Shown piece by piece: positions 3-44,615 of a DNA stretch of 57,838 nt. Under the pieces are notes generated by a model. It was given only the letters and a program-made list of their open reading frames with translations. It was not told where the DNA came from and made no database searches. The position numbers were made by a program, and so were the translations under genes. This DNA is from Bacteroidota bacterium (GTDB lineage Bacteria; Bacteroidota; Ignavibacteria; UBA10030), in contig DATJQB010000144.1 in NCBI GenBank assembly GCA_035506075.1, positions 1-57,838 on the forward strand, in the 5' to 3' direction. Position 1 is the stretch's first letter. The number at the start of each line of letters is the position of its first letter.

Positions 3-2108
3 CAGGATGCACCTGCCCGCAATGAGCAGAAGATCGATCGCGATTTTCGAACGAACAACCCGGGGGTAGAATACTACCTGCTGGGCAACGGTAGGCTCAC
101 CGTCGCGATCCAAACCTCGCCGACGCCGGAATCGGGTACCCATTGCGGATTGCTCCTGATGTCTCCGGAACACTTTGCCCGGAAACTGAGCACGTACCTC
201 TTCCATCCCGAGCGCGGGCTCCAGAATTCGCGGTTCATTGTCGTTGTAGACGGACAAAGTCACACTCCGGAGTTCGGGAAGTCTGTCGTGAAGTGGGAAT
301 ATCCCGACCGCATCCCGACAATCGTCCTCGAATGGGAGGCTGGAACCTGTTCTGTGCGCGAGGAATTGATGTGTCCCATCGCAGACGCGGCGATGGTGCG
401 AACGGTGACAGTGACGAACAAGGGGACTGTTGCGGCCAATGTTTCCGGCATCATTATGCTTTATCCGAACCTCATGTTCTTCGATGAGTACCATGTTGAC
501 CGAGAACGAGGTACCCTGAGGGCATCGGGGTATGCGACGATGGAGATGTTCTGCCTCGACGAGGCAACCGCCGGGGACAGGCATCTGAATGTGAAATTTG
601 GAGAGATCGCTCCCGGCAGCAGCAAATCATCGAGGATTGCACTGACGCTCGAGCTGGCCCGAGATGCGTTTGCAAAGAAGGGCTTTGCCGCGATGGTGTC
701 GGAGACAAAAAAGTATTGGGGAGCGCGCGCGGTGTGCGAGACGAACAACGCAGTGTTGAATCACCTGTTCAACACTTCGGTACGCGGGCTGCGGACAGCG
801 GTTGCCCAATCCGGAAAAATGGATGCCGGGATCTGGCAGTACAATTTCGAGTGGGTCCGCGATCAAAGCATGATCGTCATCGGCAGTGTCTACGCTGGAC
901 ACACCGATATCGCAGCAGCTTCGCTGAAGCGCATCTTCGACCGTTCCATTGACGATGAAGGACGCGCCCGCGATGCCAGCCGGCAGCGTCCGCCGGAAAC
1001 CGCCGAGCTCGACCAGAATGGCCAGCTCCTTTATGCGCTCTGGACGTACTGGATCTGGACGGGGGATCACTCCTTCCTGAAGCAGTACTGGACGAAGGTC
1101 CGCGCCGTCGCCAACTATGTGCTCAAGCCGGAATTTCTCGATCCCGCCACCGGTCTTGTGAAAAACTCGCGTGAATTCTGGGAGCGCGATGCGGCGTTCG
1201 GCGTGAAAGAGGGATTCGAGAACACATACCAAGCCTGGAATATCGTCGGTCTCCAGCTGGCGGCCGATCTTGCGCGGCAGATGAAGGACGTCGCCAGTGC
1301 GAAGAAATGGACGGAAGCGTCCCGCAGGATGAAGAACTCGTTTCTCCATGATCCGAAGTTCTCATTCATCGACAAGGGGATGTTCATCAAGCGCCGCCTG
1401 GTGAACGGAGAAGTGCAGCGGACGTTCGAGCCGCCAAACCGAAAGACAATGGCGCCAGGTGTACCGTTAAACGTGGAGAAGGTTTCGTACTGCGACCCCG
1501 ACAGCGGCAGTGTCTATCCCATGATTCTCGACATCATTGACGCCAAAGATCCTGTTTCGCTCAAGACACTGGAGTCGATGGAGCAGCTGTGGAATCAACG
1601 ATGGACAACAGGCGGCTACGCGCGGTACAACGTGACGTCAGAGCCGGATTCGCCGGGCGCGTGGCCGTTTCCGACAATGCTCATTGTGCGGGCGTATTTT
1701 GAAGCCGGTAACGACGAAAAAATGTGGCGCGGCCTTGAGTGGCTGCAGCAGGCACCAGGCGGGAAGGCGGGCGCATGGTTCGAATGTTACGCCGATCGCC
1801 CTGTTCCTCCGCTGCCGCCGCTTGGAATCATCCCGTGGACGTGGGCTGAGTTTGTCATGTTCACGGTCCATCACCTGATGGGGGTGAGGCCGTCCGTGGA
1901 TGAGCTCGTTCTTCAGCCGAGACTCCCGAACGGTTTGTCGAGCCTGAAATCTTCCCTCGTTCTTCGCGGTCATACAATTGATCTGACAATCACCAAAACA
2001 GACAAAGAGCCCTCAGCATCCGTCAACGGGAAAAACGTCCCGCTCGTAAACGGCAAGCTCAAACTCCCGATGCCGACAAAAGCATTGACAATCGAGATGG
2101 CCGTATAG
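3..2108 (+). CDS. GH15-like six-hairpin glycoside hydrolase (glucoamylase/trehalase type), probably 5'-truncated by the window edge
   Basis: The track ORF 150..2108 starts at the first Met, but the same frame is open back to nt 3 and the upstream codons (..NNPGVEYYLLGNGRLTVAIQ..) look coding. Motifs WVRDQS, ELDQNGQLLYALW and EFWERD resemble the GH15 (alpha/alpha)6 catalytic domain. Confidence 0.65.
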   Translation, partial: QDAPARNEQKIDRDFRTNNPGVEYYLLGNGRLTVAIQTSPTPESGTHCGLLLMSPEHFARKLSTYLFHPERGLQNSRFIVVVDGQSHTPEFGKSVVKWEYPDRIPTIVLEWEAGTCSVREELMCPIADAAMVRTVTVTNKGTVAANVSGIIMLYPNLMFFDEYHVDRERGTLRASGYATMEMFCLDEATAGDRHLNVKFGEIAPGSSKSSRIALTLELARDAFAKKGFAAMVSETKKYWGARAVCETNNAVLNHLFNTSVRGLRTAVAQSGKMDAGIWQYNFEWVRDQSMIVIGSVYAGHTDIAAASLKRIFDRSIDDEGRARDASRQRPPETAELDQNGQLLYALWTYWIWTGDHSFLKQYWTKVRAVANYVLKPEFLDPATGLVKNSREFWERDAAFGVKEGFENTYQAWNIVGLQLAADLARQMKDVASAKKWTEASRRMKNSFLHDPKFSFIDKGMFIKRRLVNGEVQRTFEPPNRKTMAPGVPLNVEKVSYCDPDSGSVYPMILDIIDAKDPVSLKTLESMEQLWNQRWTTGGYARYNVTSEPDSPGAWPFPTMLIVRAYFEAGNDEKMWRGLEWLQQAPGGKAGAWFECYADRPVPPLPPLGIIPWTWAEFVMFTVHHLMGVRPSVDELVLQPRLPNGLSSLKSSLVLRGHTIDLTITKTDKEPSASVNGKNVPLVNGKLKLPMPTKALTIEMAV

Positions 2109-7665: not shown

Positions 7666-9288
7666 ATGAACAATCGCCTGTACATCGACTGTTTTGCAAT
7701 GGTAGGGAAGCGCGGCGCGAAAGATGTTGAAGTGCGCTGGACGACGGAGGATCTCATCGACGAAATGGAGTGGTGCGGGATCCACGGCACCTTCATAACG
7801 CACGGCGTGGCGAAGGAATACGATCCAACGTACGGCAACCGTATGCTGCTCCGCGAGCTGAAGAAAAGTCCGCGCCTCTACGGGGTATGGACCGTCATGC
7901 CGCACCATACGGGGGAGATGCCGGTGCCCAAGGATGTCGTGAGCGAGATGCGTGACCACGGCATCCGCGCTGCAAAAATGTATCCCCGCATTCACCGCTA
8001 TCCATTCAACATCGATTTCTGCGGTGAGCTCCTCAGGGAGCTCGAGAAAAACGAAATTCCGCTCATGGTCGAAGGCGGGCATCTCTATAACTTCGACATC
8101 TTCGAACCAAGCAACCAGGTGTTGCTTGCAGACCTCGACATCGTGCTCTCGGCGTTTCCGGATCTGAAAGTCATTCTCCAGGGAACCCGCTGGGAATCGA
8201 CGCGCTACACGCAGCCGCTCATGAAGAAACATCGCAACCTGCACCTGGATCTTTCCGCTCATCAGGGAAATCACGCCATTGAATTGTTTGCTGAGTGGTA
8301 TGGCGCGGATCGCATTGTGTTCGGTACGGGCGCGCTGGAGAAATCACCCGGGGCTGCCAAGGCGTTCATCGATTACTGCACACTCAACGATGCCGACAAA
8401 CAGCTTATCGCGGCCGGAAACCTCTCCAGGCTGACGAAGCTGGAGACCCCGCCGAAGCCGTACAGTGCGGCGAAAAATCCCGACTGGATTGTTCAACGCG
8501 CGAAGGAGGGGAAACCGCTCGACAACATGCTTGTCATCGACGCGCACGCCCACATGTCGCATGACGGCGCGGAAGGAGTGGGATTCATACATCTCCCGTA
8601 CGGTGATGCAACGAGCATGTACGAGCGGGCACAACTCATGGGAATTCAGAAGATGTGTGTGTCCGGCTTCCTCGCTGTCTGGGTCGACTACGAAGAGGGA
8701 AACAAAATCGTCTGGGACGCGATGAAGCGCTACCCCGAGTTCTATTGCGGGTACGCGGCCCTGCAGCCGCAGTACGTGAAGGACTGGAAGAAGGAATTCA
8801 GGACTGCCCACGGAAAGTATAAGATGGGTGGATTGAAGCCGTACAATCCGCGCACGAACCTGGCCTACAATGATCCCCTCTGGGCGCCCTGGTTTGAATA
8901 CGGCAACAAGATCAACGCGTATGCATTGATCCATCCCTCACCCAACGTCGTTCCTGAAGTGCATGAGATTGCCGCAAAGTACCCGAACATCGCCTTTATC
9001 ATCGCGCACACCGGCGGCTCGTTCCAGGACGCACGAAAGGGAATCGAGATGGCGAAGAAGAATCCGAACGTCTATCTCGAAATTACACTTACATCGGTGA
9101 CATACCGGGTGATCGAATTCATGGTTGAACACGTCGGTGCAGACCGCGTGCTCTTCGGGACCGATCAACCAATGCGCGATCCGATCCCGCAGTTTGGATG
9201 GATGGCGTACTCGCACTGCACGGTGGCGGAAAAGAAAAAGATGTTCGGGCTCAACATGCAGCGCATCCTGAAGCGCGTGAAGGTGTAA
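7666..9288 (+). CDS. Tandem amidohydrolase-2 (ACMSD-type TIM barrel) protein with a degenerate N-terminal copy
   Basis: ATG 7666 is preceded by GAGGGG. The C-half carries VIDAHAH, IIAHTGG and LFGTDQP (metal ligands). The N-half aligns to it but reads YIDCFAM, ILQGTRW and VFGTGAL. Confidence 0.75.
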   Translation: MNNRLYIDCFAMVGKRGAKDVEVRWTTEDLIDEMEWCGIHGTFITHGVAKEYDPTYGNRMLLRELKKSPRLYGVWTVMPHHTGEMPVPKDVVSEMRDHGIRAAKMYPRIHRYPFNIDFCGELLRELEKNEIPLMVEGGHLYNFDIFEPSNQVLLADLDIVLSAFPDLKVILQGTRWESTRYTQPLMKKHRNLHLDLSAHQGNHAIELFAEWYGADRIVFGTGALEKSPGAAKAFIDYCTLNDADKQLIAAGNLSRLTKLETPPKPYSAAKNPDWIVQRAKEGKPLDNMLVIDAHAHMSHDGAEGVGFIHLPYGDATSMYERAQLMGIQKMCVSGFLAVWVDYEEGNKIVWDAMKRYPEFYCGYAALQPQYVKDWKKEFRTAHGKYKMGGLKPYNPRTNLAYNDPLWAPWFEYGNKINAYALIHPSPNVVPEVHEIAAKYPNIAFIIAHTGGSFQDARKGIEMAKKNPNVYLEITLTSVTYRVIEFMVEHVGADRVLFGTDQPMRDPIPQFGWMAYSHCTVAEKKKMFGLNMQRILKRVKV

Positions 9289-9296
9289 CCCCCTCG

Positions 9297-11681
9297 ATGC
9301 GATTCACAATCGTTTTCATAGTGCTGATGGTCGTTTCGTTTCCGTCCCGGGCATTCAGCGCGGGCACGGGCAGCGATCGCGTGATGATCCAGAATGAGTT
9401 TCTCAGGGTGGTGGTCGAACAATCCGGTGATGGCTTTCACGAGTCCTACTTCGTCAAGAAGGGGAACTCGTGGATCGAGCTGCTCGAAGCGGGAAGCCCG
9501 GTGCGTCCCGATCCCTTCGTCCGGCAGGATGGGCGGGCGGTTAAGCTGACGGCGCCGACAGTATCACAGGAGCCGGGAAAACAGCAGATCGTTATCGTTC
9601 GTCATGGGCCTGGCAACGCGGTGAGCTTCAAGTCCATCACTCTAGTGCCAAAAGAACACCGGGCTCATGTTACGTACGCCTACAGAACAGGCGGAAGTGT
9701 CGTTCTCGACGGATTCTGGTCAACGTACTCGTTCACGCCGGCGGGCAAGCGGTTCAAGGAATACCGGCCCCTCGATTTCGTCTGGACACCACAGCTTCGT
9801 CCCGAAGGTGAGCAGATTATTGCGGATCACACGTTCCGGTCACCCGCGCTGATGATGCAGAAGGACGGATATTTTGCGGCGCTGGTCCCCGTGCTGTCTG
9901 ATGTCGATGGGAGGGGAAGAAGGATCCGGACTGCGGCGGATTTGGAGGTAGAGACAGCCGACCGGCCGTTCTTTTCCATAGGGCTGCAGAACTGGATTGC
10001 AGAGCCGTATGCGCGTCGCAACACACACGTGTTCTATGATGCCCCGGATTCCCTTGCGCCGCTGCTCGGCGACACGACGGTGACGATGAACTACTTGCTC
10101 TTCTTGCGATCGGATGCACCGAAGCGGGAGGGGTACCGTGAGGTCGTGCGGTACCACTGGGCGACATCAGGAGAAGCCTGGATGCAGAGGGCAACGAGTC
10201 CGCAGGTTGAGCCGTTTTCAGCCTACATACAGAAGGCCTGGTATCAATTCGTCCCGCAGGTTGCGCTCGACACTCAGTACCGGGGCACGCCGGTCACGCT
10301 GCTTCGCCAGGCGCGTCTTGCATGGAGCAATCAGCTTCCGAAGTCAGCGGACAATGACAGCTGGTTCAACGTCTGGTTCAACGCGCTCCGCACGGCTTAC
10401 GGGATGTTTCTGCATGGAAAAGCTGTTCACGATGAGCACCTGATGCGGCAGGCTAGGCAGGTGTTGAACCTCGCCCTCCTCGCGCCGCAGCAGCGCGGAA
10501 TTGCTCCATCGATCTTCTACCTCGACAGCGCCGGCGGACATTGGGTTGCCGATCACGCGTGGGGAGGAATTGACGGCGGGCGTGACTTTGCAATGTTCCA
10601 CAATGCGTGGACCTGTTACTGGCTCCTGCAGTGGATTGATCTCGTTCCCGAACGGAAGCCCCAGATTCTCAGATACACAATGTCGTTTGCGGATTTTCTG
10701 CTGCGCAACCAGCATCGTAACGGAGTGATTCCGTCATGGTACGATCCGGAGACCTTGAAGCCTGTCGAAACATTCCGCGATGAGAATGCAGAGACAGCAG
10801 GAGCGGCACTGTTTCTCGCAGAGTTCGCAGCCCGCACAAAGCAAAGCCGTTATGCCGTGGGAGCTGAACATGCGATGCAGTACATCTTCACACACGTTCT
10901 CCCTGAGCGAAAGTGGTTCGACTTTGAGACGTTCTTTTCCTGTTCACGGAAGCCGGTCGGGTTTTACGATTCGTTTACACAACAGAATCCGCAAAATACA
11001 CTTTCCATGCACCAGGCGGCTGAAGCATGCTACGCTCTCTATAGGCTGACAGGAAAGAACATGTACAAAGATCGCGGCACGGCGATCATGGACTATCTTT
11101 GTTTGTATCAGCAAGTGTGGAGCCCGCGCTGGCTTTCGAAGGAACTGTTCGGTGGGTTCGGTGTTCAGAACACCGACGCGGAGTGGAGCGATTCCCGGCA
11201 AGGATATTTCGCGGTGACCCTCATGAAGTACTATGAATTGACGGGTCAAAAGGAATACTTCGAACGGGGAGTCGCGGCCCTCAGGGCGATGTTCTCTCTC
11301 TTTGAGTCTCCGACATCACCCCGAACGGCAGAAAACTATGGCCATTCCGGCTCTGACCGCCCGGCCGGTGTGACTGGACTTCACTGGGGAACTGGAAGCT
11401 CGGTCGTTTCAATTCATCTCATCACCCGGCAGTACGGAGACGCCTATGTCGACGTGAAGGGGAAATGGGGCGTTGGAATCGACGGATGCAGGATACCGGC
11501 GGTGACGGTGTCTGGCACGACGATCGAAGTTGAAGTGATCAACAATCTGGCAACCGCCCGAACAATCAAGCTGAAGTTCGGCAACGCGTCCAAAACGGCG
11601 TACAATGTCATCGTGAACAAAAAGCCGATGGGCCGCATCAAGGCAGCAGTGTTGAAGGAAGGAATTGATGTTGCTCTCTAG
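9297..11681 (+). CDS. Secreted hypothetical protein (794 aa), possibly an (alpha/alpha)-barrel glycan-active enzyme
   Basis: In-frame ATG 9297 gives a Sec signal MRFTIVFIVLMVVSFPSRAFSAG. The track ORF's earlier start at 9198 overlaps the previous gene. The helix-rich middle and C-terminal regions (ETAGAALFLAEFAA, AAEACYALYRLTGKNMY, FAVTLMKYYELTGQKEYFERG) suggest a six-hairpin-like fold. No family was recognised. Confidence 0.6.
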   Translation: MRFTIVFIVLMVVSFPSRAFSAGTGSDRVMIQNEFLRVVVEQSGDGFHESYFVKKGNSWIELLEAGSPVRPDPFVRQDGRAVKLTAPTVSQEPGKQQIVIVRHGPGNAVSFKSITLVPKEHRAHVTYAYRTGGSVVLDGFWSTYSFTPAGKRFKEYRPLDFVWTPQLRPEGEQIIADHTFRSPALMMQKDGYFAALVPVLSDVDGRGRRIRTAADLEVETADRPFFSIGLQNWIAEPYARRNTHVFYDAPDSLAPLLGDTTVTMNYLLFLRSDAPKREGYREVVRYHWATSGEAWMQRATSPQVEPFSAYIQKAWYQFVPQVALDTQYRGTPVTLLRQARLAWSNQLPKSADNDSWFNVWFNALRTAYGMFLHGKAVHDEHLMRQARQVLNLALLAPQQRGIAPSIFYLDSAGGHWVADHAWGGIDGGRDFAMFHNAWTCYWLLQWIDLVPERKPQILRYTMSFADFLLRNQHRNGVIPSWYDPETLKPVETFRDENAETAGAALFLAEFAARTKQSRYAVGAEHAMQYIFTHVLPERKWFDFETFFSCSRKPVGFYDSFTQQNPQNTLSMHQAAEACYALYRLTGKNMYKDRGTAIMDYLCLYQQVWSPRWLSKELFGGFGVQNTDAEWSDSRQGYFAVTLMKYYELTGQKEYFERGVAALRAMFSLFESPTSPRTAENYGHSGSDRPAGVTGLHWGTGSSVVSIHLITRQYGDAYVDVKGKWGVGIDGCRIPAVTVSGTTIEVEVINNLATARTIKLKFGNASKTAYNVIVNKKPMGRIKAAVLKEGIDVAL

Positions 11682-12741: not shown

Positions 12742-12751
12742 AAAAGACCGG

Positions 12752-14563: not shown

Positions 14564-14565
14564 CA

Positions 14566-15564: not shown

Positions 15565-15608
15565 TCTCATTCTCAAGGATGTTTCGTACAAGAAATCTCA
15601 GGTGTCTG

Positions 15609-16616: not shown

Positions 16617-16632
16617 CGAGGAAAACTGAACA

Positions 16633-31076: not shown

Positions 31077-31087
31077 AAGAAGATCGC

Positions 31088-35160: not shown

Positions 35161-35200
35161 CCGCGCTGTGTGTCAGGATTATCCAGGGGAGGCTTTTCCA

Positions 35201-37444
35201 ATGAAACGGTTCGGTTTGATCTTCAGTACTCTGCTCGTTTGTGCATCCACGGGATTTTCTCAGAAATCTATCTATCTCGAAGAGATCAAGAACGCTGTCG
35301 ATCGCGAGTGGAAAAACTATCCGGCACAGATTGAATCCTGGAAGAAGAATACCCAGCCGAGCATTCTTTGGGGTTACAACCCGCCTGGTGGTCCCGCGTA
35401 CCTCGCGGGGGCTCTTGGCTTTCTGTATGAACAGACAAAGAATGTCAGCTATGCAAAAAAGGCGGCGGAGATCCTTGCTTCGTACGGAGACCTGCGCGCA
35501 ACGTACCCGAAGGATTACGCAAAGACACGTGCAGAGTATGTCAACGGCATCCCGGCGTTGTCCAACTTTTTCTTCATGCCCCCCTTCATTCGGGCGTATC
35601 AACGGATCAGGGATTGCGGCGTGCTCGATGAGGAGATGAGAAAGAAAATTGAGGAGAATGTTGCGGGAAGCGCGGACTTTGTCTTCTTCTTTCCCGAGTG
35701 GGGAACCCACAATCGCGCGATGCTCAGAGCCGAGGCCCTGCTCTACGCGTCGCTTGCAATGCCTCATCATCCCCACGCGGAACGGTGGAGAACAATGGCC
35801 CGGATCCTTGCTGATGACAACCTCAAGCAATGGGAAATCGAAGATGCCACGGTGTATCATCCGGTGTGGATGACGGCGCTGTATTCGTATGCGGATGCGT
35901 CGGGAGCAACGGACCTCTTCAATTCACCTCTCATGAGATTCTATCCGAAGTACTTTGAGAAACTCATCGCACCTCACGGTACGCTACCGGAATTTGGCGA
36001 TGCGCGCTGGTTGTCAGGATTCGAGGGGCTCCGGTGGGTGGCTATTTTCGAGCATGCGGCAGCCGCATACAAAGACCCCGAACTCAAATGGGCTGCAAAA
36101 TCGGTCTTCGAGGCCTTCAAGAGCAGAAACGGGAACATCGCCTCCGGCGAAGCATACTATCTCGCCGACGCTTACCGATGGACTGATGAATCGATCAAAC
36201 CTGTAAAGCCGACAAGCAGATCGCAGGAAGTGCTTGAGGATCTCGTGGGAAAGAAGATCGTTTTCCGCAACGGCTGGGAACCCACGAGCACCTACATGCT
36301 TCTGAACTACAGGGATGAAGGGGACGGCGGATTGCTGTACCGGGATTTCCTCCGGCAGACGATTTCGGTTGAAGACGAGAAAATGCACCATGGACATTCG
36401 GATGAAAACAGCATCGCCCTCCTGATGAGCAACGGATCGGTTCTTCTGCATGACGGAGATTACAGGAGCGATCTTCCGAGCGGACCGTACGGGGCATGGA
36501 GGCAGGACTATTTCCACAACCGGCTGATTGCCCGAACGGGCAAGCGCGACGCGAGGCAGAAACTCCTGGAGTTTGTACAGAATTCCGGTGCATACCGCCA
36601 GGTCCGGACACAGAAGTTAGACTTCCTGAGCCTGAAGGAAGTCGATATGAGCCGAACGCGCCTTATCGACGCGGATCTTGGGTACCAGTCCGATCGAAGC
36701 ATCACCTATCTCAAGGAAGAGGGATGGTTTGTTGTCGTCGACGCTGTAAAGATCCTCAGGACGGGATACTATACTTTCGCGAATCTCTGGCATGCCCAGA
36801 CGATTCTTGCGAAAGGCAAGGAGTACTACGATGTCGCAACGGACTCCATTGCCGGCGCAACGCTTCCACAGTCACAGTCACTTCTCCTCGTGTTCCCGGA
36901 ATCATATCAGAAGACGCTGGGAGCAGAGCCCATTACTCGGAGCACGCAGCAGGAACACGCGATCTTCCAAACGGTCTCGAGTCAATACAAAGCGGGAGAT
37001 ACAGAATTGTTCGTGACCGTTCTCATTCCCCATGCGCGCGGCGCCAACGTCGAGGAACTGAAGTCCAGGATAACACTCGCACCCGTTACGTCGCCCTATA
37101 AGGCGGTCGGCGTTGAACTTGCGCGGGAAAATAAAGTCTCGACATGCTGCGTCAAGATTGACCTGGACATGGACCTTGCGCGCGAGAATATCCGACCGCG
37201 CTATCTTTATCAGCTTGGGAAAGTCGGGTACGGCGAATTCGAGACTGACGCCAGCTACATGTTTGCGACGGTCGACCGGGGGACGGTGTCCTATGCGGCG
37301 TCAAACGTCCTGAAAGTGCTGTACAAGAACAAACCGTTGTTCGAATCGCTCGCTGATACGCATCCTCTTCAGCTCGACGGGACCGTCGAGCGTGTTGGAT
37401 TTGTGAAATGGAGATACTGGGAGGATTCTGTTGAAACGAAATAA
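35201..37444 (+). CDS. Secreted heparinase II/III-like protein
   Basis: ATG 35201 follows GGAGG and gives the signal MKRFGLIFSTLLVCASTGFSQ. Toroid-like motifs are EWGTHNRAMLRAEALLYASLA and EIEDATVYHPVW. The C-terminal MHHGHSDENSIALL matches the family H-x-H-x-D motif. Confidence 0.7.
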   Translation: MKRFGLIFSTLLVCASTGFSQKSIYLEEIKNAVDREWKNYPAQIESWKKNTQPSILWGYNPPGGPAYLAGALGFLYEQTKNVSYAKKAAEILASYGDLRATYPKDYAKTRAEYVNGIPALSNFFFMPPFIRAYQRIRDCGVLDEEMRKKIEENVAGSADFVFFFPEWGTHNRAMLRAEALLYASLAMPHHPHAERWRTMARILADDNLKQWEIEDATVYHPVWMTALYSYADASGATDLFNSPLMRFYPKYFEKLIAPHGTLPEFGDARWLSGFEGLRWVAIFEHAAAAYKDPELKWAAKSVFEAFKSRNGNIASGEAYYLADAYRWTDESIKPVKPTSRSQEVLEDLVGKKIVFRNGWEPTSTYMLLNYRDEGDGGLLYRDFLRQTISVEDEKMHHGHSDENSIALLMSNGSVLLHDGDYRSDLPSGPYGAWRQDYFHNRLIARTGKRDARQKLLEFVQNSGAYRQVRTQKLDFLSLKEVDMSRTRLIDADLGYQSDRSITYLKEEGWFVVVDAVKILRTGYYTFANLWHAQTILAKGKEYYDVATDSIAGATLPQSQSLLLVFPESYQKTLGAEPITRSTQQEHAIFQTVSSQYKAGDTELFVTVLIPHARGANVEELKSRITLAPVTSPYKAVGVELARENKVSTCCVKIDLDMDLARENIRPRYLYQLGKVGYGEFETDASYMFATVDRGTVSYAASNVLKVLYKNKPLFESLADTHPLQLDGTVERVGFVKWRYWEDSVETK

Positions 37445-37464: not shown

Positions 37465-38391
37465 ATGGTACTCACGATCACGCTCAATCCGATGCTGGAC
37501 AAAACAGTTCACATCGGACAACTTCAGCGGGGGGCAATTCATCGGGCGACCGCGATGGAAACTGTTCCGGGCGGCAAAGGAATCAATGTGTCGCGGCAAT
37601 TGAAGCGGCTCGGCATAAGGACGCTCGCGACAGGATTCCTTGGCGGCGACGCGGGGCACCGGATTTCGGAAATGCTGACGGCGGAAGGCGTTGATCATGA
37701 GTTCGTCATGACGAATGCACGTACTCGTGATGGGGTTACGTACCTCGAACCCGACGGGACATGGACGGCTGTCTTCGAACCGGCGTTCGCGATCGACGCA
37801 ATGTCCGTCGATGCCCTGAGGAGCAAGTTCGACAAACTGATTCCACAATGTTCGTGGGTGATGTGTGGGGGAAGTTCTCCGGGCGAGGAGACTGACGATC
37901 TTTTCTTCGAAGCTATCGTGAAGGCGCATGACGCAGGGTTGCCGAGCGTTCTTGATTCGTACGGCAACGCGTTCGGGCGGGCAATGAAGGCGAAGCCAAC
38001 GATGGTAAAGCCGAACAAAAAGGAGTTCGAATCGACGTACAATGCACGGCTCGAGTCGGCCGGTGATTACGTTGACGCAATCAATTTTCTTTTCAGTCAA
38101 GGAGCAAACTACTGTATTATCACTGACGGGGGATCACCGTTCTACGCCGGTGTCAAAGGCCATTACTGGAAAGTCAGTCCGCCGGCTGTCAGAACCGTAA
38201 ATCCCACGGGATCAGGGGACGCAATGATTGCAGGCATTCTGTACGGTTTTCGCCAGGGTTGGAAGTTCGAACGGTGTCTCGCTTTTGGAGCTGCAGCCGG
38301 AGCTGCAAATGCGATGATGTGGGAAGTAGCTCTATTGACCCTGGATGACATTATGAGACTCGAAGCACAGGTAGTAATCCAGCGGGTCTAA
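37465..38391 (+). CDS. PfkB-family kinase of the 1-phosphofructokinase / tagatose-6-P kinase subgroup
   Basis: The N-terminus is MVLTITLNPMLDKT...GGKGINVSR and the C-terminus carries NPTGSGDAMIAG. Confidence 0.8.
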   Translation: MVLTITLNPMLDKTVHIGQLQRGAIHRATAMETVPGGKGINVSRQLKRLGIRTLATGFLGGDAGHRISEMLTAEGVDHEFVMTNARTRDGVTYLEPDGTWTAVFEPAFAIDAMSVDALRSKFDKLIPQCSWVMCGGSSPGEETDDLFFEAIVKAHDAGLPSVLDSYGNAFGRAMKAKPTMVKPNKKEFESTYNARLESAGDYVDAINFLFSQGANYCIITDGGSPFYAGVKGHYWKVSPPAVRTVNPTGSGDAMIAGILYGFRQGWKFERCLAFGAAAGAANAMMWEVALLTLDDIMRLEAQVVIQRV

Positions 38392-38405
38392 AAGGCTAAT
38401 CGACT

Positions 38406-39449
38406 ATGAATGATCGTCTGCTGCGTACGTTGAATGGTGATGTGCCGGACCAGGTGCCGTTTCTTCCTGCGATCTACGAGCACAAAGGATGGTTCATCGG
38501 CGAGACACCTTCGCGCGTTGCGCGGGACGCGCGCCTGCTCACAACTGCGCTGCAGGCTGAGTTTGAACAGGTCGGTGCCGATGCTCTCATCGTTGGAGTC
38601 GATATCTACAATGTCGAAGCTGAGGCGATGGGATGCACCGTGACGTATTACGAGGGGAACGACAACTCCGTGCCTGCGATCGGCTCCAACGGAGCGATTG
38701 TTCACACAGCAGGAGACCTGGAATCTCTCAGGACGCCGGACCCGTACAAAGACGGGCGGATGCCGCTGAATCTCGAAGCCGCCAGGAACACAGTGAAAAC
38801 GCTGGGACGTGAAGTCCCTGTCAGGGGAGCAGTCTCCGGTCCATTTTCGCTGGCAGCACACCTTTCCGGCCCGGGGAATTTTTTTCTGCTGCTTATGATG
38901 CAGACGGAGTTGGTGAAGGCGCTTCTCGCGTTCGCCGCCGGTGTCATCAAGGCCTACGGCAAGGCGCTTATCGAACAAGGGTGCGGCATCGTCATGTTTG
39001 ATTCGCACGCGTCGCCGGACCTGTTGCCGCCCGACATGTACCGCGATCTTGTGCTTCCGCATACACGCGAGATCATAGAGTACTTTCAAACGCTCGGCGT
39101 TCAACACGTGCCGCTCATTATCGGTGGGAACACCACGAAAATGCTCGACTCGTATCTCGACACGGGAGCAAATAACCTTCTCTGCGACGTCAAGGCAGAT
39201 CCGCAAAGGTTCGTGGAGGCCTGCTCCAAAACAAGAAGAGCGTTTCGCCGGAACATTGATTTGTCGGATGCCGGCACGACGACACCGGATGAGGCGCACC
39301 GGCGCGCACTCCGTGATCTTGAAGCATCGGGTGGATATCCGGGATTCATTCTTGGTACCGCTGTCCTGCCATACGGCACGCCGCTGTCGCACCTGCTCGC
39401 GATGAAAGAGGCGATACGGGAGCATAGCAAGAGTCGCGGCAGGGGATGA
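38406..39449 (+). CDS. Uroporphyrinogen-decarboxylase (URO-D) family protein, MtaA/O-demethylase-methyltransferase-like
   Basis: 347 aa. It has the N-terminus NDRLLRTLNGDVPDQVPF and the C-terminus GFILGTAVLPYGTPLSHLLAMKEAI, typical of the URO-D/MtaA fold. The expected H-x-C zinc motif appears as SHAS. Confidence 0.7.
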   Translation: MNDRLLRTLNGDVPDQVPFLPAIYEHKGWFIGETPSRVARDARLLTTALQAEFEQVGADALIVGVDIYNVEAEAMGCTVTYYEGNDNSVPAIGSNGAIVHTAGDLESLRTPDPYKDGRMPLNLEAARNTVKTLGREVPVRGAVSGPFSLAAHLSGPGNFFLLLMMQTELVKALLAFAAGVIKAYGKALIEQGCGIVMFDSHASPDLLPPDMYRDLVLPHTREIIEYFQTLGVQHVPLIIGGNTTKMLDSYLDTGANNLLCDVKADPQRFVEACSKTRRAFRRNIDLSDAGTTTPDEAHRRALRDLEASGGYPGFILGTAVLPYGTPLSHLLAMKEAIREHSKSRGRG

Positions 39450-39498
39450 AGAAGTAACGGCGGAATGCAGAACGAACACGCGTGACTCTGATAGAACT

Positions 39499-39609
39499 GC
39501 AGGGACTCTAGACCAGAGCTTTGCAAATGAATTTGGCGCGGATGGATTTGCCCGTGACGCCGTTCTCGCTTTCGATACCTTCAAACGTTTTATTCAAACG
39601 GAACCATAA
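39499..39609 (+). pseudogene. Relic of the 3' end of a cobalamin-binding (corrinoid) protein gene
   Basis: The frame is open 39406-39609 with no usable start codon. It ends ..AGTLDQSFANEFGADGFARDAVLAFDTFKRFIQTEP*. This matches the C-terminal consensus of B12-binding domains (GGAP.T..FA..IGADGY..DA..AV). The N-terminal ~170 aa, including the DxHxxG loop, are absent. Confidence 0.55.
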
Positions 39610-39627
39610 TTTTCATCAGGGGGGTTC

Positions 39628-41001
39628 ATGGCAGGTCGTTTCACATCACTCGCTATTCCCGGCGCGACGGGATTGATGTTCGGCAGATCGACAACAACCG
39701 TGCGATGCGGCTTGGGACTTGAGCTCGGAAAAGGCGAAGTCTATCCGGAGCTGAACTTCACCTTGCCGACAATGGCGCTCGATGAATCCACATGGTCCGC
39801 CGTTCTTGGACACTACGAAGAGATCGGGGCGAGCGTCGAGCGGGCTGCAAGACGATTGCACCTCCCCGGACTGATGATCGAGTTCGAACTGTTGCCCCCC
39901 ATGACTGAGCACCCTTCCTGGGGAGCTGAAATCACGGCCATCCTGAACCGCCATTTGAAACAGGCCCACGAGGAATTCGGGCTGCCGTGCGCTCTCCGTG
40001 TGACGCCGACGGATATCCGCGACGTGACGCGCCCCCCCGACCTCCGGTCAGGAAAACCCGTTGAAGCGCTCTTCGAATCATTCGAACAATGCGCAGCCGC
40101 CGGTGCACACGTACTCTCGATTGAGTCGGTGGGAGCAAAGGAAGTCCACGACGAGGCGTTGCTGTATGGTGACATCGAGGGAGTGATCTTCGCACTGGGA
40201 GTGCTCGCGCCGAGGGACATGGAGTTCCTCTGGAAAAGGATCATCAGCATCTGTAAAGCTCACAACGTTGTGGCGGGCGGCGATTCTGCGTGTGGGTTTG
40301 CCAACACGGCGATGCAGCTTTCTTCACAGGGCATGCTCCCGGAAGTTCTGGCGACAATCGTGCGGGCGGCGAGCTCGGTGCGAAGCCTCGTTGCGTATGA
40401 ATGCGGCGCACAGGGACCGTCCAAGGATTGTGCTTATGAAGGACCCGTGATTAAGGCGATCACAGGAACGCCGATTGCGATGGAAGGAAAGTCGGCGAGC
40501 TGCGCTCATTTCAGTCCGGTAGGTAACGTCGCAGCGGCAATGTGCGATCTCTGGAGCAACGAATCGGTCCAGAACCTCCGGCTGCTCTCAGGCCCCGCGC
40601 CTGAAGCGTACCTTGAACTTCTCGCCTACGATTGCCGGTTGTTCAACCGTGCACTCCGAACCGGAACAGAGGGAGTGTACCAAAAACTGCTGGTCGATTC
40701 CGACATTCACATCAGCCCGCAAGCGTATATTCTGTCTCCCGAGTCGACGTCAAGGATTGCCGCGGTGATCGTGAAGGAATCGAATCACTACGCGATGACA
40801 CTTGCCGCAGCGAAGGAAGCTGTTGCCATCATCCGTGATGGCGCAGCGAAGAAAGCGCTGACGCTGAATTCGAAGGAAGTGGAGTGGACGGATCGAATCA
40901 GCCGCGAGCTTGACGCAATGCCGGCGGACGAGCAAAGCCTGATGGGATCGATGCAGGATCGGTACGGTCACCTGTTTTCAGGTGCGAGTTACGGGCTGTG
41001 A
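39628..41001 (+). CDS. MtaB-like (methanol:corrinoid methyltransferase family) protein
   Basis: 457 aa, with ATG 39628 following AGGGGGG. The segments MIEFELLPPMTEHPSWGAEI, LPCALRVTPTDIRD, SIESVGAKE, GGDSACGF and SKDCAYEGP are collinear with my recollection of Methanosarcina MtaB. Confidence 0.6.
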   Translation: MAGRFTSLAIPGATGLMFGRSTTTVRCGLGLELGKGEVYPELNFTLPTMALDESTWSAVLGHYEEIGASVERAARRLHLPGLMIEFELLPPMTEHPSWGAEITAILNRHLKQAHEEFGLPCALRVTPTDIRDVTRPPDLRSGKPVEALFESFEQCAAAGAHVLSIESVGAKEVHDEALLYGDIEGVIFALGVLAPRDMEFLWKRIISICKAHNVVAGGDSACGFANTAMQLSSQGMLPEVLATIVRAASSVRSLVAYECGAQGPSKDCAYEGPVIKAITGTPIAMEGKSASCAHFSPVGNVAAAMCDLWSNESVQNLRLLSGPAPEAYLELLAYDCRLFNRALRTGTEGVYQKLLVDSDIHISPQAYILSPESTSRIAAVIVKESNHYAMTLAAAKEAVAIIRDGAAKKALTLNSKEVEWTDRISRELDAMPADEQSLMGSMQDRYGHLFSGASYGL

Positions 41002-41106: not shown

Positions 41107-43440
41107 ATGCCCACAATGAGCGAACTGCTTGCGCAGGCGAAGGTCATCCACACCACGAACCCTTCGATCCAGGTCGAACAAACCGTTGCACATGAGCTGC
41201 AAACCATCGTCGGTCGTGCAATCGATATTAAAAATGCTCCGGGATTGTCTGCTCCGGCAGGGACAATCCGCGTCGCCGTCGTGAAAGAGAAGGCACAATG
41301 GCACAGCCTTCACGCGTCGCTCAGTGGATCCGGCGACTGGATGATGGTTCGGGCGAAGCCCGGGTCAGGAATTGAAATTCTCGCGTCCCGTCCTCATCTC
41401 CTCTTCTATATCTATTCCATGCTTGTCGAGGACTGGAAAGGTATGGACGCGGGGGAGTTTGCCAAGGGGAAGATCGTTCACCCGTCGTTTCACAATATGC
41501 GCCCGGTCTACGACCTCTTTCTCACGCAGCACGCGCGGACGGTTCGCAACTTCGATCGCGAGGAGCACATTCGCAACCTTGCGCGCCTAGGATTCTCGCA
41601 CGCTGAGGTCAACGGTCTGGCGTTCGCGGTGCCGTTTGAACGCGGCCCGCAGGGGGAGCTCCTCCATCGTTTTTACACGTACTGTCCATCGCTCGATCAA
41701 TTCGTTTCGAGCCGTCTGAACAAGGGAATTTATGACGACGACTACCTGCAGGCGAATCTGAACTTTCTGAAGCGCAATGCGGCCCTGGCGGAAAAATACG
41801 GATTGGCCCCCGGCCTTGTCTGCTTCGAACCGCGTTCTGTTCCCGACAATCTTCTTGAACGCTATCCGATGCTGCGGGGTGCGCGCGTCGATCACCCGAT
41901 CCGCAGCTGGCATCCGCGATACAACCTGTCGATCGCACATCCGGTGGTCCGTGATCACTACGCTGAGATGCTCGAAAATCTCCTGAAGGAAGTCCCGTCT
42001 CTGGAGTACATCTCTGTCTGGTCGAACGACAGCGGCGCGGGGTTTGAGTACACAAGCTCGTTGTATGTCGGCCGCAACGGAGGCGGCTATGTGATTCGCG
42101 AGTGGAAGGGGGACACGGAGATCGCGGAATCGGCGGCGAACAACCTGGTGCGGTTCATGAAGACACTGCGGGATGCGGCGCGCAAAGTGAATCCGAAATT
42201 CAGAACGCTCATCCGTCTGGAACCGTTCTGGGCGGAGCATGAATATATCTGGAATCAACTCGGCGACGGATTGGACGTCGAAGTTTCGTCCCTGCTGACA
42301 AAGGGGTGGAAGCTGGCGTATCAACATCCAAAATACAAGGAAGCACGGGAGATTCACGGCACGGCGCTGCATAACAGGTTTGTGGACGACGAGAAACCGA
42401 TCATCGAAGAGCTGCGGAAAAAGAAATCGGAGGCAGACGTCTACTTCAATCCGGGCACAATCTGGAATCACGAGCCTCTCCTGGGAGTCCCGTTCCCCGG
42501 CCTGGTCTACGACAAACTCGCGGATATGGCAAAGCAGGGAGTGACAACCCCTTGCTTCAACGGCAGCACAACCCCGCAGTCGTTTGCACCGTACAACATC
42601 AACCAGGAACTCGTCCGTGCATTCCAGGCGGATGCAACGCTCGATCTTGACGTCTTCCTGCACAGGAAAGCGTCGGAGTGGATCGGCGAATCACTTGCGG
42701 CCGATCTTGTAAAAATATGGAAACACTCGGATGATGCATACCGGTCGTTCCCCATCCCGATCTGGATTTACTCGTCATGGGGAAACTGGTACCGGCTTGC
42801 CATCCGGCCCATCATTCCAAACGTCGAAGCGATCTCACCCAAAGAGCGGGCATACTACGAGAAGTTCCTCCTGGCGACCTCGCACAACCGGTGCATGATC
42901 GATTTCCGGTACGATGTGGGATTCGATCTTGTCGATCCGGCCCACGCCTATCATTGCATGAAGTTGATGGATAAGGACTTGTTCCCCGAGCTGGATGCGG
43001 CGATGAAGCTGCTTGGGCAAATGAAGTCCAAAGCGAAGACCGACGCCGCCCAGGCGTGTGTCGAGGATCTGACAGACCGTATGCGTGCCCTGCAATGCTG
43101 GTACCGCACGCAGCGGAATGTCACCGCATGGGTTGCGGGCGTCCATGGCTACCTCGAAACGAAGGACAAGAAGGTGAAGAAAGAATCCCGCCGGCTGCTC
43201 AAGGAGATGGTTCTGGATGAAATCGAGAACACGAAAGAGCTCCTGAAGCTGTGGGAGACCTCGAAGACGAACTGGATGATCCTTTCGGATGTCGGCGAGA
43301 CGACGTTTATCTACTACAAGAACTTTGGTGAACTGTTGAAGCGGAAGATCGTCCTGATGAAGGGGCATGAAAACGACGAGCCGTACGTCGATCCTGACTT
43401 CCAGTGGCGCGTTCCCGGCTTCACCGATGTGAAGGCGTAA
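41107..43440 (+). CDS. Large cytoplasmic hypothetical protein (777 aa), possibly a TIM-barrel glycoside-hydrolase-like enzyme
   Basis: It is a long uninterrupted ORF with coding-like composition and no signal peptide. The central region (LGFSHAEVNGLAF, LVCFEPRS, ISVWSNDSGAGFEY) looks like a beta/alpha barrel and the C-terminus is helical. No family was recognised. Confidence 0.55.
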   Translation: MPTMSELLAQAKVIHTTNPSIQVEQTVAHELQTIVGRAIDIKNAPGLSAPAGTIRVAVVKEKAQWHSLHASLSGSGDWMMVRAKPGSGIEILASRPHLLFYIYSMLVEDWKGMDAGEFAKGKIVHPSFHNMRPVYDLFLTQHARTVRNFDREEHIRNLARLGFSHAEVNGLAFAVPFERGPQGELLHRFYTYCPSLDQFVSSRLNKGIYDDDYLQANLNFLKRNAALAEKYGLAPGLVCFEPRSVPDNLLERYPMLRGARVDHPIRSWHPRYNLSIAHPVVRDHYAEMLENLLKEVPSLEYISVWSNDSGAGFEYTSSLYVGRNGGGYVIREWKGDTEIAESAANNLVRFMKTLRDAARKVNPKFRTLIRLEPFWAEHEYIWNQLGDGLDVEVSSLLTKGWKLAYQHPKYKEAREIHGTALHNRFVDDEKPIIEELRKKKSEADVYFNPGTIWNHEPLLGVPFPGLVYDKLADMAKQGVTTPCFNGSTTPQSFAPYNINQELVRAFQADATLDLDVFLHRKASEWIGESLAADLVKIWKHSDDAYRSFPIPIWIYSSWGNWYRLAIRPIIPNVEAISPKERAYYEKFLLATSHNRCMIDFRYDVGFDLVDPAHAYHCMKLMDKDLFPELDAAMKLLGQMKSKAKTDAAQACVEDLTDRMRALQCWYRTQRNVTAWVAGVHGYLETKDKKVKKESRRLLKEMVLDEIENTKELLKLWETSKTNWMILSDVGETTFIYYKNFGELLKRKIVLMKGHENDEPYVDPDFQWRVPGFTDVKA

Positions 43441-43463
43441 GCAAAGGAATCGTCTCATCGTTG

Positions 43464-44615
43464 ATGACTATGCCCCTGCGCATTCTCATAGCCCCGGATT
43501 CGTTCAAAGGAACCCTTACTGCAGCCGAGGCGGCCGCGGCGATGGAGAGCGGGGTCCTCACAGCGCTTCCTGATGCAGTCGTGATGAAGCAGCCCCTCTC
43601 CGACGGCGGAGAGGGAATGGTCGACATTATCACGGGGGCTCTCGGAGGCAGGATCATCACCACTCGGGTGAGCGGACCGCTGCCTGAGCAGCGAGTAGAT
43701 GCAACGTGGGGTTTGTCGGCAGACGGCACAACGGCTGTCATTGAGATGGCTGAAGCCGCGGGACTGCTGCTTGTCCCGAAGGAACGCCGGAATCCGGGAA
43801 TCACATCGACGATTGGTGTCGGCGAGGTGATGAAGGCCGCGCTTGATGAGGGGGTCAGCTCTCTTCTCATCGGCATCGGCGGGAGCGCGACGAATGACGG
43901 CGGGGCGGGGATGGCGGAGGCGCTCGGCTACAAGTTTCTTGATGCCGGAGGCTCCCCGCTTGACCGGGGAGGGGCGGCGCTCATGAACCTGGCAATCATC
44001 GATCCTGCCGAAAAAGATCCGCGCCTGGATCGTGTGGAAATTCTCGTTGCCTGCGATGTGCAGAACACGCTCTGTGGAAAGGAAGGCGCATCCGCCGTCT
44101 ATGGACCGCAGAAGGGAGCTTCGCTCTCCGATGTTTCCCTGCTTGACAAAGCGCTCGGGCATTTTGGCCGACTCATACAGTCACAGCTGAACGTGGATGT
44201 TCTTTCTCTTCCTGGAGGCGGCGCGGCCGGAGGATTGGGAGCAGGGCTCGTGGCGTTTTGCGGCGCCCGGCTCCTGAATGGGATTGATCTTGTTCTGCGG
44301 ATTACAAAGTTCGATGAACGGCTTCAGACCGTCGATCTCGTCATCACGGGTGAAGGGAAGATCGACCGTCAGTTCAGCTACGGAAAGTCTCTCGCAGGTG
44401 TTGTCGGCCACTCGAAGAAGTTGGGAGTACCGGCACTGGCTGTCGTTGGACGGAGAGAAGGGGATCGCGCCTTGTTTGTGAACGCGGATGCGTTTGCCGA
44501 CATCGAATCGCTCGTGGACGAAGAATTCTCTGAACAGGAAGCCATGAACAACGCCGCCGTGATGGTCGCTCAAAAGACGAATCGCTTGCTTCAACGGTAT
44601 TTAAGTCGTACTTAA
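43464..44615 (+). CDS. Glycerate kinase (GlxK/GarK family)
   Basis: It starts MTMPLRILIAPDSFKGTLTAAEAA (the family signature APDSFKG) and has GGSATNDGGAGM. An alternative ATG is at 43470. Confidence 0.85.
   Translation: MTMPLRILIAPDSFKGTLTAAEAAAAMESGVLTALPDAVVMKQPLSDGGEGMVDIITGALGGRIITTRVSGPLPEQRVDATWGLSADGTTAVIEMAEAAGLLLVPKERRNPGITSTIGVGEVMKAALDEGVSSLLIGIGGSATNDGGAGMAEALGYKFLDAGGSPLDRGGAALMNLAIIDPAEKDPRLDRVEILVACDVQNTLCGKEGASAVYGPQKGASLSDVSLLDKALGHFGRLIQSQLNVDVLSLPGGGAAGGLGAGLVAFCGARLLNGIDLVLRITKFDERLQTVDLVITGEGKIDRQFSYGKSLAGVVGHSKKLGVPALAVVGRREGDRALFVNADAFADIESLVDEEFSEQEAMNNAAVMVAQKTNRLLQRYLSRT

Follow-up and report, generated by a model that had tools for sequence, protein, structure and literature searches.

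Among the closest described counterparts of the genes reported here are the Methanosarcina MtaABC proteins (structures 2I2X and 4AY7) and the MtaA-MtaC-MtaB systems of acetogens (Acetobacterium woodii, Eubacterium limosum/maltosivorans/callanderi, and Moorella thermoacetica). The DNA analysed is a stretch of 57,838 nt, positions 1 to 57,838 of contig DATJQB010000144.1 in assembly GCA_035506075.1 (the window), a single metagenomic contig. It encodes, on one strand, a 347-aa protein of the URO-D superfamily and a 457-aa protein of the MtaB family. On balance, this pair probably represents the remains of a three-gene corrinoid methyl-transfer cassette tied to glycan breakdown, which in the window would be disabled or dependent on a carrier supplied in trans. 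As read from orthologous loci, the order of the cassette is URO-D-type methyltransferase, MtaC-like corrinoid carrier, and MtaB-type methyltransferase.

The locus shares with Methanosarcina MtaABC the MtaB fold (template-modelling (TM) score 0.88, 39% identity to the M. barkeri enzyme), the zinc triad that we take to be Glu164, Cys220, and Cys269 in M. barkeri MtaB (2I2X), a URO-D-superfamily third component and, in orthologous loci, a B12-binding_2+B12-binding carrier next to MtaB. It differs in four respects: the window MtaB scores 418 bits against an equivalog cutoff of 720, the window has lost the carrier gene, the H-x-C...C site that activates coenzyme M in MtaA is missing from the URO-D protein, and the cassette hosts are heterotrophic bacteria, not methanogens.

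In acetogens, the operon order is mtaA-mtaC-mtaB, and the corrinoid protein and MTII are shared between systems (PMC13391211). The present cassette has the same order of methyltransferase, carrier, and MtaB, and both systems are bacterial and cytoplasmic. The window MtaB is 44–45% identical to that of E. maltosivorans, compared with 35% between the acetogen and M. barkeri enzymes. However, the acetogen MtaA is a 29.7-kDa tetrahydrofolate (THF) methyltransferase (PMC13391211), whereas a 38-kDa URO-D-type protein occurs here; RACo is not nearby, Wood–Ljungdahl genes are not among the annotated neighbours, and the cassette is embedded in glycan-catabolic genes.

Two further groups of bacterial systems use URO-D-type enzymes. 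The O-demethylases (Odm/Vdm/Mtv) have a methyltransferase I of the UroD superfamily and the same logic, in which the methyl group of an ether passes to a Co(I) carrier and on to an acceptor, but their known substrates are aryl methyl ethers, they include a THF methyltransferase and an activase, and they lack an MtaB-family member. The Type 1 mlp clusters of Kountz & Balskus (PMC10418091) occur in non-methanogens and pair MtaA-like UroD proteins with an adjacent corrinoid protein, without a THF methyltransferase. Their hosts are obligate anaerobes, mostly Firmicutes, and they comprise 2–3 Mlps with a proposed thiol/selenide chemistry and a Ram/RACE activase, without MtaB (PMC10418091). The cassette described here, in contrast, combines MtaB with just one URO-D protein, in which the canonical zinc motif is absent, and adjoins a glycosidase-like protein. 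If it demethylates sugars, its aerobic functional counterpart would be the cytochrome P450 6-O-methyl-D-galactose demethylase of marine Bacteroidetes, reportedly described by Reisky et al. in 2018 and said to lie inside a polysaccharide-utilisation locus. That enzyme differs in its oxygen-dependent oxidative chemistry, its formaldehyde product, and its unrelated protein families.

We found no published description of the block of URO-D (without H-x-C), MtaC, MtaB, and glycosidase-like protein, of its embedding in glycan loci, or of recurrent carrier loss. The component families are already known, and bacterial mtaB in heterotrophs has been noted before. Corrinoid-dependent sugar demethylation appears in the literature as annotation-level mentions only.

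The MtaB-family enzyme, the carrier remnant and the URO-D partner

The cassette in the window consists of the following features:

38406..39449, + strand: URO-D-superfamily MtaA/CmuA-like protein, 347 aa (PF01208, TIGR01463, 4ay7, motif table)
39488..39508, + strand: 5′ remnant of the corrinoid-protein gene, 7 codons, start ATG changed to CTG (alignment with loci L001 and L004)
39511..39609, + strand: 3′ remnant of the corrinoid-protein gene, reading DQSFANEFGADGFARDAVLAFDTFKRFIQTEP*, 32 codons plus stop (alignment; MtaC profile hidden Markov model (HMM))
39628..41001, + strand: MtaB-family methanol:corrinoid methyltransferase homologue, 457 aa (Pfam PF12176; 2i2x_A; zinc triad; AlphaFold2 (AF2) model)

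Both of the large open reading frames (ORFs) were judged real, with a spacing of 178 nt as initially annotated. An antisense ORF at 38388–39584 (398 aa) had no Pfam match and was judged spurious. The MtaB ORF is preceded by a ribosome-binding-site-like AGGGGGG at 39618–39624. Scanning for promoters and terminators around the cassette returned nothing relevant to the finding above shuffled expectation.

The initial annotation had aligned the 457-aa protein with MtaB by eye, and all five peptide strings that it quoted are present in the protein. The placement was borne out by family, sequence, and structure comparison. Pfam PF12176 matched over its full length (E=4e-154, 514.3 bits versus a cutoff of 25; residues 4–448 on profile positions 3–449 of 460), and the match to M. 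barkeri MtaB (2i2x_A) ran end to end (E=5.6e-93). When the AF2 model (predicted TM score (pTM) 0.85) was compared with the PDB using Foldseek, 2i2x_A was the sole strong match (E=1.6e-31; next match E=1e-4), indicating the MtaB TIM-barrel fold. The three M. barkeri zinc ligands correspond to E166, C222, and C268 of the window protein, at positions verified by alignment, and the E/C/C triad is present in 67 of 68 aligned MtaB-family sequences. The score against NCBIfam equivalog NF040651 (methanogen MtaB) was 417.9 bits. By these comparisons, the protein is a member of the MtaB family and not an equivalog of the archaeal enzyme. Among 153 columns at which acetogen and archaeal MtaB agree, 94 are kept identical in the window's clade and five are clade-specific switches. 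The closeness to acetogen MtaB and the small number of switches make methanol the most likely small-molecule partner. Elsewhere in the family, a 1238-aa protein (P0265) carries an MtaB-like domain at residues 793–1237, a fusion.

The reduced corrinoid gene that the initial annotation had seen between the two ORFs is real. The 178-nt intergenic region contains 21 nt and 99 nt of a gene that is intact in orthologous loci, in two remnants that are mutually out of frame. About 520 bp are missing; the alignment gap is clean, and both flanks are collinear. The 3′ remnant lies beyond the deleted cobalamin-binding motifs DxHxxG, SxL, and GG, and with the MtaC profile HMM the only match in the window was a 23-bit remnant (39406–39606). 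At 10 columns that are ≥90% conserved, the 3′ remnant has three substitutions, as opposed to none or one in 38 intact proteins. The lost start codon, the shifted frame, and the excess of conserved-column substitutions argue for a decaying pseudogene and not for a collapsed assembly. All three conserved-column substitutions in this remnant are to phenylalanine (I to F, V to F, and V to F), and there is also a Y to F change.

Intact versions of the carrier were found in every close orthologous locus. The same gene order over ~20 kb occurs in Ignavibacteriales metagenome-assembled genome (MAG) GCA_026390595.1 (MtaB identity 85%), in fen and lake MAGs (75–81%), and in a JGI contig (85%). All of these loci have a 213-aa B12-binding_2+B12-binding protein between URO-D and MtaB. 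In L001, it matches corrinoid-protein models and carries the DxHxxG (as DMHDIG), SxL, and GG motifs; intact carriers with cobalamin motifs are present in L001, L003, L004, L008–L026, L090, and others. In the closest relative (MtaB identity 88%), coding sequence for the C-terminal 70 residues of the carrier persists past the window breakpoint. As the carrier is complete in each close orthologous locus, the loss is best seen as lineage-specific and not as the design of a two-gene system. The window carrier gene thus looks like a real, decaying pseudogene specific to its lineage. Exact-pattern scans of JGI metagenome contigs yielded no independent copy of the deletion junction or of the window lineage.

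The 347-aa protein had been called URO-D/MtaA-like, which agrees with our results: it matched Pfam URO-D PF01208 (E=7.6e-45), and its best PDB relative was M. mazei MtaA 4ay7 (E=1.3e-17), ahead of structures of HemE (uroporphyrinogen decarboxylase). MtaA and HemE were its only PDB matches. Against TIGR01463 (MtaA/CmuA), it reached 128.4 bits, below the subfamily cutoff of 235.4. The zinc motif H-x-C...C of M. mazei MtaA is presumably formed by His240, Cys242, and Cys319. In the HMMER alignment to 4ay7, MtaA LHICGN aligns with LIIGGN of the window protein (preceded by Q-H-V-P) and G-C(319) with G-T, and the zinc positions read I/G/T. The initial annotation had located the motif at an H-A-S. That position was wrong, as DSHASPD aligns with DPVASPD in MtaA; the absence of the canonical zinc triad held. 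The motif table covers 34 homologues. All 22 orthologues (≥42% identity) lack the canonical motif, and C260, D261, and C273 are invariant in all of them, so an alternative metal site via C260/C273 is possible. Three other URO-D subfamilies occur in related loci, all of them with H-x-C: LH[VIM]CGN...GC, QHTCGR (~380 aa), and KHSCG/LHSCG (~370–430 aa).

The glycan array and orthologous loci

Nearly the whole window is one same-strand gene array according to Pfam analysis of its ORFs. Its sugar and glycan genes encode GH38, GH3, heparinase-II/III-like and BNR/sortilin-like proteins, a DeoC/LacD aldolase, ROK, a GHMP galactokinase-like protein, SSF and EamA transporters, and GFO/IDH oxidoreductases; arginine-biosynthesis genes lie at the 3′ end. 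The immediate neighbours of the cassette are as initially annotated, all on the + strand. They are listed here with two other proteins that recur next to the cassette in other phyla:

35168..37444, + strand: 758-aa secreted protein, weakly heparinase-III/PL17-like, recurring with the cassette across phyla (signal-peptide-like N-terminus; profile versus PDB 4fnv E=0.002)
37465..38391, + strand: PfkB-family hexose-phosphate kinase, directly 5′ of the URO-D gene (Pfam; TIGR03168 262 bits, above cutoff; syntenic in relatives)
41107..43440, + strand: 777-aa glycoside-hydrolase-like protein (AF2 and Foldseek; adjoins MtaB in type A and B loci, defined below)
43404..44615, + strand: glycerate kinase, 3′ of the 777-aa gene (Pfam PF02595 E=5.7e-129; syntenic in relatives)
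9198..11681, + strand: 827-aa protein without Pfam match (own clustering, cluster 23)
150..2108, + strand: 652-aa (alpha/alpha)6-glycosidase-like protein (weak Pfam matches to GH65C and Bac_rhamnosid6H; cluster 18)

No neighbour of the cassette is more constant than the 777-aa protein. It has no Pfam or NCBIfam match, and all of its 1414 homologues are annotated as 'hypothetical'. A fold search was needed, since sequence and profile searches against the PDB gave only spurious matches (to von Willebrand factor A1 domains). In the AF2 model (pTM 0.86), an alpha/beta domain at the N-terminus is followed by a TIM barrel and, at the C-terminus, by a helical bundle. Foldseek related it to GH20C hexosaminidases, GH67 and GH115 alpha-glucuronidases, and GH89/GH84 (E 1e-12 to 1e-8, TM ~0.4–0.5). 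A signal peptide is absent from its sequence. Judging from the model, it is probably a glycosidase that acts in the cytoplasm and belongs to a family not yet described, and it is a candidate for a new glycoside-hydrolase family. In pairwise comparison, the 758-aa protein resembled neither the 777-aa protein nor the 794-aa neighbour found in type B loci.

Other parts of the array have peculiarities of their own. Three tandem BNR/sortilin-like paralogues (11665–12741, 14542–15564, and 15561–16616) lie within 11665–18453 and alternate with genes for two paralogous proteins of ~600–630 aa without a Pfam domain (12677–14563 and 16633–18453). Within 29316–32107, a DHO_dh-like ORF with a GTG start (30791–32107, 438 aa) shares 285 nt with a GH3 ORF. 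The corresponding protein in relatives has 339–342 aa, and in L003 and L004 its gene is followed by one for a 114-aa 4Fe-4S ferredoxin. The true start of the window gene is probably downstream of the listed GTG.

A GTDB-wide scan retrieved 80 loci with MtaB homologues of 55–81% identity, all from MAGs, many of them of peat, fen, lake, or soil. They belong to Ignavibacteriota, Bacteroidota, Kryptoniota, KSB1, Acidobacteriota, Methylomirabilota, Alphaproteobacteria, Planctomycetota, and Dehalococcoidia. According to the MtaC profile HMM, a carrier gene lies directly 5′ of MtaB in ~50 of 90 loci. By mapping window genes onto the loci, clustering neighbours, and applying Pfam, with ±10 kb covered around each MtaC-less MtaB, we distinguished these arrangements:

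Type A (the window's type): M20-ROK-758aa-PfkB-UROD-MtaC-MtaB-777aa-GlyK
Type B (Kryptoniota/Bacteroidota): 794aa-UROD-MtaC-MtaB-777aa-like, followed by a core-MetE-like gene
Type C: M20-MtaB-ROK-UROD(LHSCG)-758aa-PfkB-UROD(window type)-777aa-GlyK, with MtaC absent within 10 kb
Types D and E: MtaB alone or with a URO-D protein of canonical zinc motif, with MtaC absent within 10 kb
Acidobacteriota type: DUF6580-MtaC-MtaB-DUF1638-RACo-UROD(KHSCG), often beside a sugar MFS transporter or phosphohexomutase

The block of window-type URO-D, MtaC, MtaB, and 777-aa protein is kept in two otherwise different gene contexts and in several phyla. Homologues of the 827-aa protein (~794 aa) are found directly 5′ of URO-D-MtaC-MtaB in Kryptoniota/Bacteroidota loci, and those of the 652-aa protein 3′ of the cassette; type B loci thus have counterparts of two window proteins nearby. 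The cassette stands beside the 777-aa protein and other array genes in Ignavibacteriota, Bacteroidota, and Kryptoniota, and in KSB1 it occurs in glycan loci. The link to sugar catabolism that was initially proposed is therefore not accidental, and URO-D-MtaC-MtaB does recur in glycan loci of related genomes across several phyla.

In the type B loci L018, L021, L025, L026, and L054 (~13800–14900), a 339-aa Meth_synt_2 (core-MetE-like) gene directly follows the 777-aa-like gene, and a second URO-D gene with the canonical LHMCGN...GC lies farther 3′. The Acidobacteriota-type loci (L051, L057, L060, L062, L066–L069, L073, and L079; ~8000–15000) contain one or two 430-aa URO-D-like proteins and represent a corrinoid system that is complete, has a URO-D-type partner, and lacks a pterin-binding methyltransferase. 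An HMM built from Acidobacteriota RACo proteins matched 17 loci, none of them in Ignavibacteriota, Bacteroidota, or Kryptoniota, and had no match in the window. RACo and DUF1638 are hallmarks of working corrinoid systems and, where they accompany MtaB, support reading the cassette as one.

The MtaC-less MtaB loci (L006, L007, L028, L030, and L032–L047, with MtaB at ~10001 in each) form their own clades in the MtaB tree. In their proteins, the zinc triad is intact, as are 183 of 192 conserved columns (95%). One clear switch was seen at E258 (M. barkeri E259), which is R, S, or Q in most MtaC-less proteins. The window MtaB sits in the MtaC-linked clade and keeps E258. When MtaC homologues were sought as possible trans carriers in the MtaC-less genomes, all of the matches listed had at least 77% identity.

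In one Bacteroidota MAG (contig_3754), a sugar module (L088, at 1.84 Mb) with the order GH38-FAA hydrolase-M20-ROK-UROD(LHSCGN)-758aa-DeoC-PfkB-777aa-GlyK lies 1.76 Mb from a solitary MtaB (L006, at 0.08 Mb), which means that the sugar module and MtaB can be unlinked. An earlier reading of L088 as a zinc-less URO-D protein without MtaB was dropped, as BLAST assigned its URO-D protein to the LHSCGN subfamily.

A close relative carries an mtaB gene (L090, 5755–7128, from JGI 3300035659; L091, at identical coordinates, from Logan SRR11721627) with an in-frame TGA at invariant Trp56 (DEST*KTVL versus DESTWSAVL in the window) and an intact carrier. The two sequences are identical, and their MtaB is 85% identical to that of the window. 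The TGA is a second, independent lesion of the cassette or a sequencing error of one shared read set. As a nonsense codon, it would hint that the cassette is dispensable in the window's clade.

Proposed function and competing explanations

In intact relatives, the MtaB-like enzyme would polarise the C–O bond of methanol through its Glu/Cys/Cys-bound zinc and methylate Co(I) of the carrier. The second half-reaction, on the methylated carrier, would fall to the URO-D-type enzyme, whose gene holds the operon position equal to that of mtaA in acetogen mtaA-mtaC-mtaB operons. Its partner would not be a zinc-activated thiol, and tetrahydrofolate is the most probable methyl acceptor. As the cassette travels with a cytoplasmic GH20/GH67/GH115-like protein in a glycan array, it most likely handles the methyl groups of that glycan, either methanol from methyl esters or methoxy groups. 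Capture of methanol would fit the lyase-like proteins in the locus, which would act on uronic-acid polymers. Such polymers can carry methyl esters. Consumption of methanol is also, to our knowledge, the only established direction for the MtaB family. In the window, the internal deletion has taken the cobalamin-binding core of the carrier, so that the cassette as encoded cannot relay methyl groups. The window cassette would represent either a recent loss of function or reliance on a corrinoid protein from elsewhere.

Several observations weigh against this reading of the pair as the remains of a glycan-linked methyl-transfer cassette. In the window, we detected no second B12-binding protein, no RACo or DUF1638 (RACo by the HMM described above), and, in an Rfam scan, no cobalamin riboswitch or other RNA. 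Using Pfam, no pterin-binding protein was found among the large window ORFs or the annotated genes of Ignavibacteriota loci; a known acceptor-side methyltransferase, whether of the pterin-binding THF type or a zinc MtaA, was likewise found neither among these large ORFs nor among these annotated genes. The canonical H-x-C...C motif is absent from the window URO-D protein. The URO-D partner also varies among lineages (four subfamilies) while MtaB is constant, a pattern more in keeping with a partner that changes with the substrate than with a general enzyme on the acceptor side. All corrinoid:THF methyltransferases characterised in bacteria are ~30 kDa and not of the URO-D type (PMC10418091, PMC13391211). 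Characterised bacterial URO-D-type corrinoid enzymes are substrate demethylases and, by analogy, the URO-D protein may be a second methyl-donor enzyme instead of an acceptor-side one. No MtaC lies within 10 kb of MtaB in whole clades from Bacteroidota and Ignavibacteriota. In the literature, the function of bacterial MtaB in Ignavibacteria, Bacteroidetes, and Acidobacteria is covered by annotation-level mentions only. Finally, relative-rate and invariant-column tests gave no signal of decay in the window MtaB and URO-D: MtaB violates 2 of 146 near-invariant family columns, a typical value, and the branch lengths of both proteins in the window lineage are within the range of 13 neighbouring genes. 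Both intact proteins may still be in use.

The last observations bear on a possible but less probable explanation, in which the cassette still functions with a corrinoid protein encoded elsewhere in the genome and the deleted copy was redundant. Both flanking genes are intact, have kept their family-invariant residues, and show no excessive branch length; in acetogens, different systems can draw on a common corrinoid protein and MTII (PMC13391211). For the MtaC-less clades, the retained zinc triad and conserved columns make a trans partner plausible. However, the one place in the genome available to us, the 57.8-kb window, yielded no second B12-binding protein, a very recent deletion would look identical, and the independent mtaB nonsense codon in the relative suggests a dispensable cassette.

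We consider it unlikely, although worth stating, that the intact cassette is a methyl-ether hydrolase. The URO-D enzyme would demethylate an O-methyl sugar, freed by the 777-aa glycosidase-like protein, onto the corrinoid, and a reversed MtaB would discharge the methyl group as methanol. The net reaction would be R-O-CH3 + H2O -> R-OH + CH3OH, with no need for a folate pathway. This would account for a cassette made of two 'substrate:corrinoid'-type enzymes and one carrier, for the absence of a THF methyltransferase among Pfam-annotated genes of the loci examined, and for a URO-D partner that is lineage-variable beside a constant MtaB. It is also consistent with the characterised bacterial URO-D-type corrinoid enzymes, which are O-, S-, or halogen-demethylases, and with the sugar MFS transporters and phosphohexomutase that adjoin the Acidobacteriota versions. 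The cassette tightly adjoins a GH67/GH115/GH20-like protein, and GH67 and GH115 release 4-O-methyl-glucuronate, but the 777-aa fold is equally similar to hexosaminidases, and no methylated sugar was identified. We found no precedent for methanol formation in vivo by an MtaB-family enzyme. The canonical zinc site for activation of the ether oxygen is missing from the URO-D protein, although C260 and C273 might substitute.

Repurposing of the MtaB-like and URO-D-like proteins for a role independent of any corrinoid carrier is improbable. In its favour, MtaC adjacency has been lost recurrently, types C, D, and E are MtaB clades of their own with an intact zinc triad, and the conserved position E258 switches in MtaC-less clades. 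The window protein, however, belongs to the MtaC-linked clade with E258 kept, and MtaC is present in all close orthologous loci. The 95% of conserved columns common to MtaC-linked and MtaC-less MtaB argues for unchanged chemistry, and the MtaC-less status itself rests on ±10 kb per gene. A repurposed, cobalamin-independent derivative, which the initial annotation had offered as one option, is thus not the best reading; with an intact carrier in all close orthologous loci, the window represents a lineage-specific deletion.

That the deletion is an assembly or binning artefact in an organism with an intact three-gene cassette is very unlikely: the lineage was seen once, on one metagenomic contig, with no second copy in JGI contig scans, but the junction is clean with collinear flanks, the start codon is gone from the 5′ remnant, the reading frames of the two remnants do not match, and the conserved-column substitutions follow the pattern of a decaying pseudogene.

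These loci bear on how bacterial mtaB may be read. The gene is expressed in peat Acidobacteriota (PMC10805028), and metagenome studies read mtaB of non-methanogenic, non-acetogenic bacteria simply as 'bacterial methanol methylotrophy'. A different picture emerges for Ignavibacteriota, Bacteroidota, Kryptoniota, and KSB1, in which mtaB is part of a fixed cassette with a URO-D partner that lacks the zinc motif, in glycan loci; an uncharacterised glycosidase-like protein adjoins the cassette in all of these phyla but KSB1. The window deletion with its intact enzymes, the mtaB nonsense codon in a relative, and the clades without a nearby carrier gene are natural experiments on the dispensability of the carrier. 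If methyl groups of polysaccharides are indeed processed, polysaccharide turnover would be linked to methanol pools, through capture of methyl-ester methanol or cleavage of sugar methyl ethers, and these pools feed methylotrophic methanogens in wetlands and sediments. Should the block prove to be an anaerobic, oxygen-independent O-methyl-sugar demethylase in which MtaB runs backwards and releases methanol, an outcome to which we give a low probability, fermenters without C1 pathways could eat methylated glycans, and in anoxic soils and sediments the cassette would produce methanol from a biological source that has so far been overlooked.

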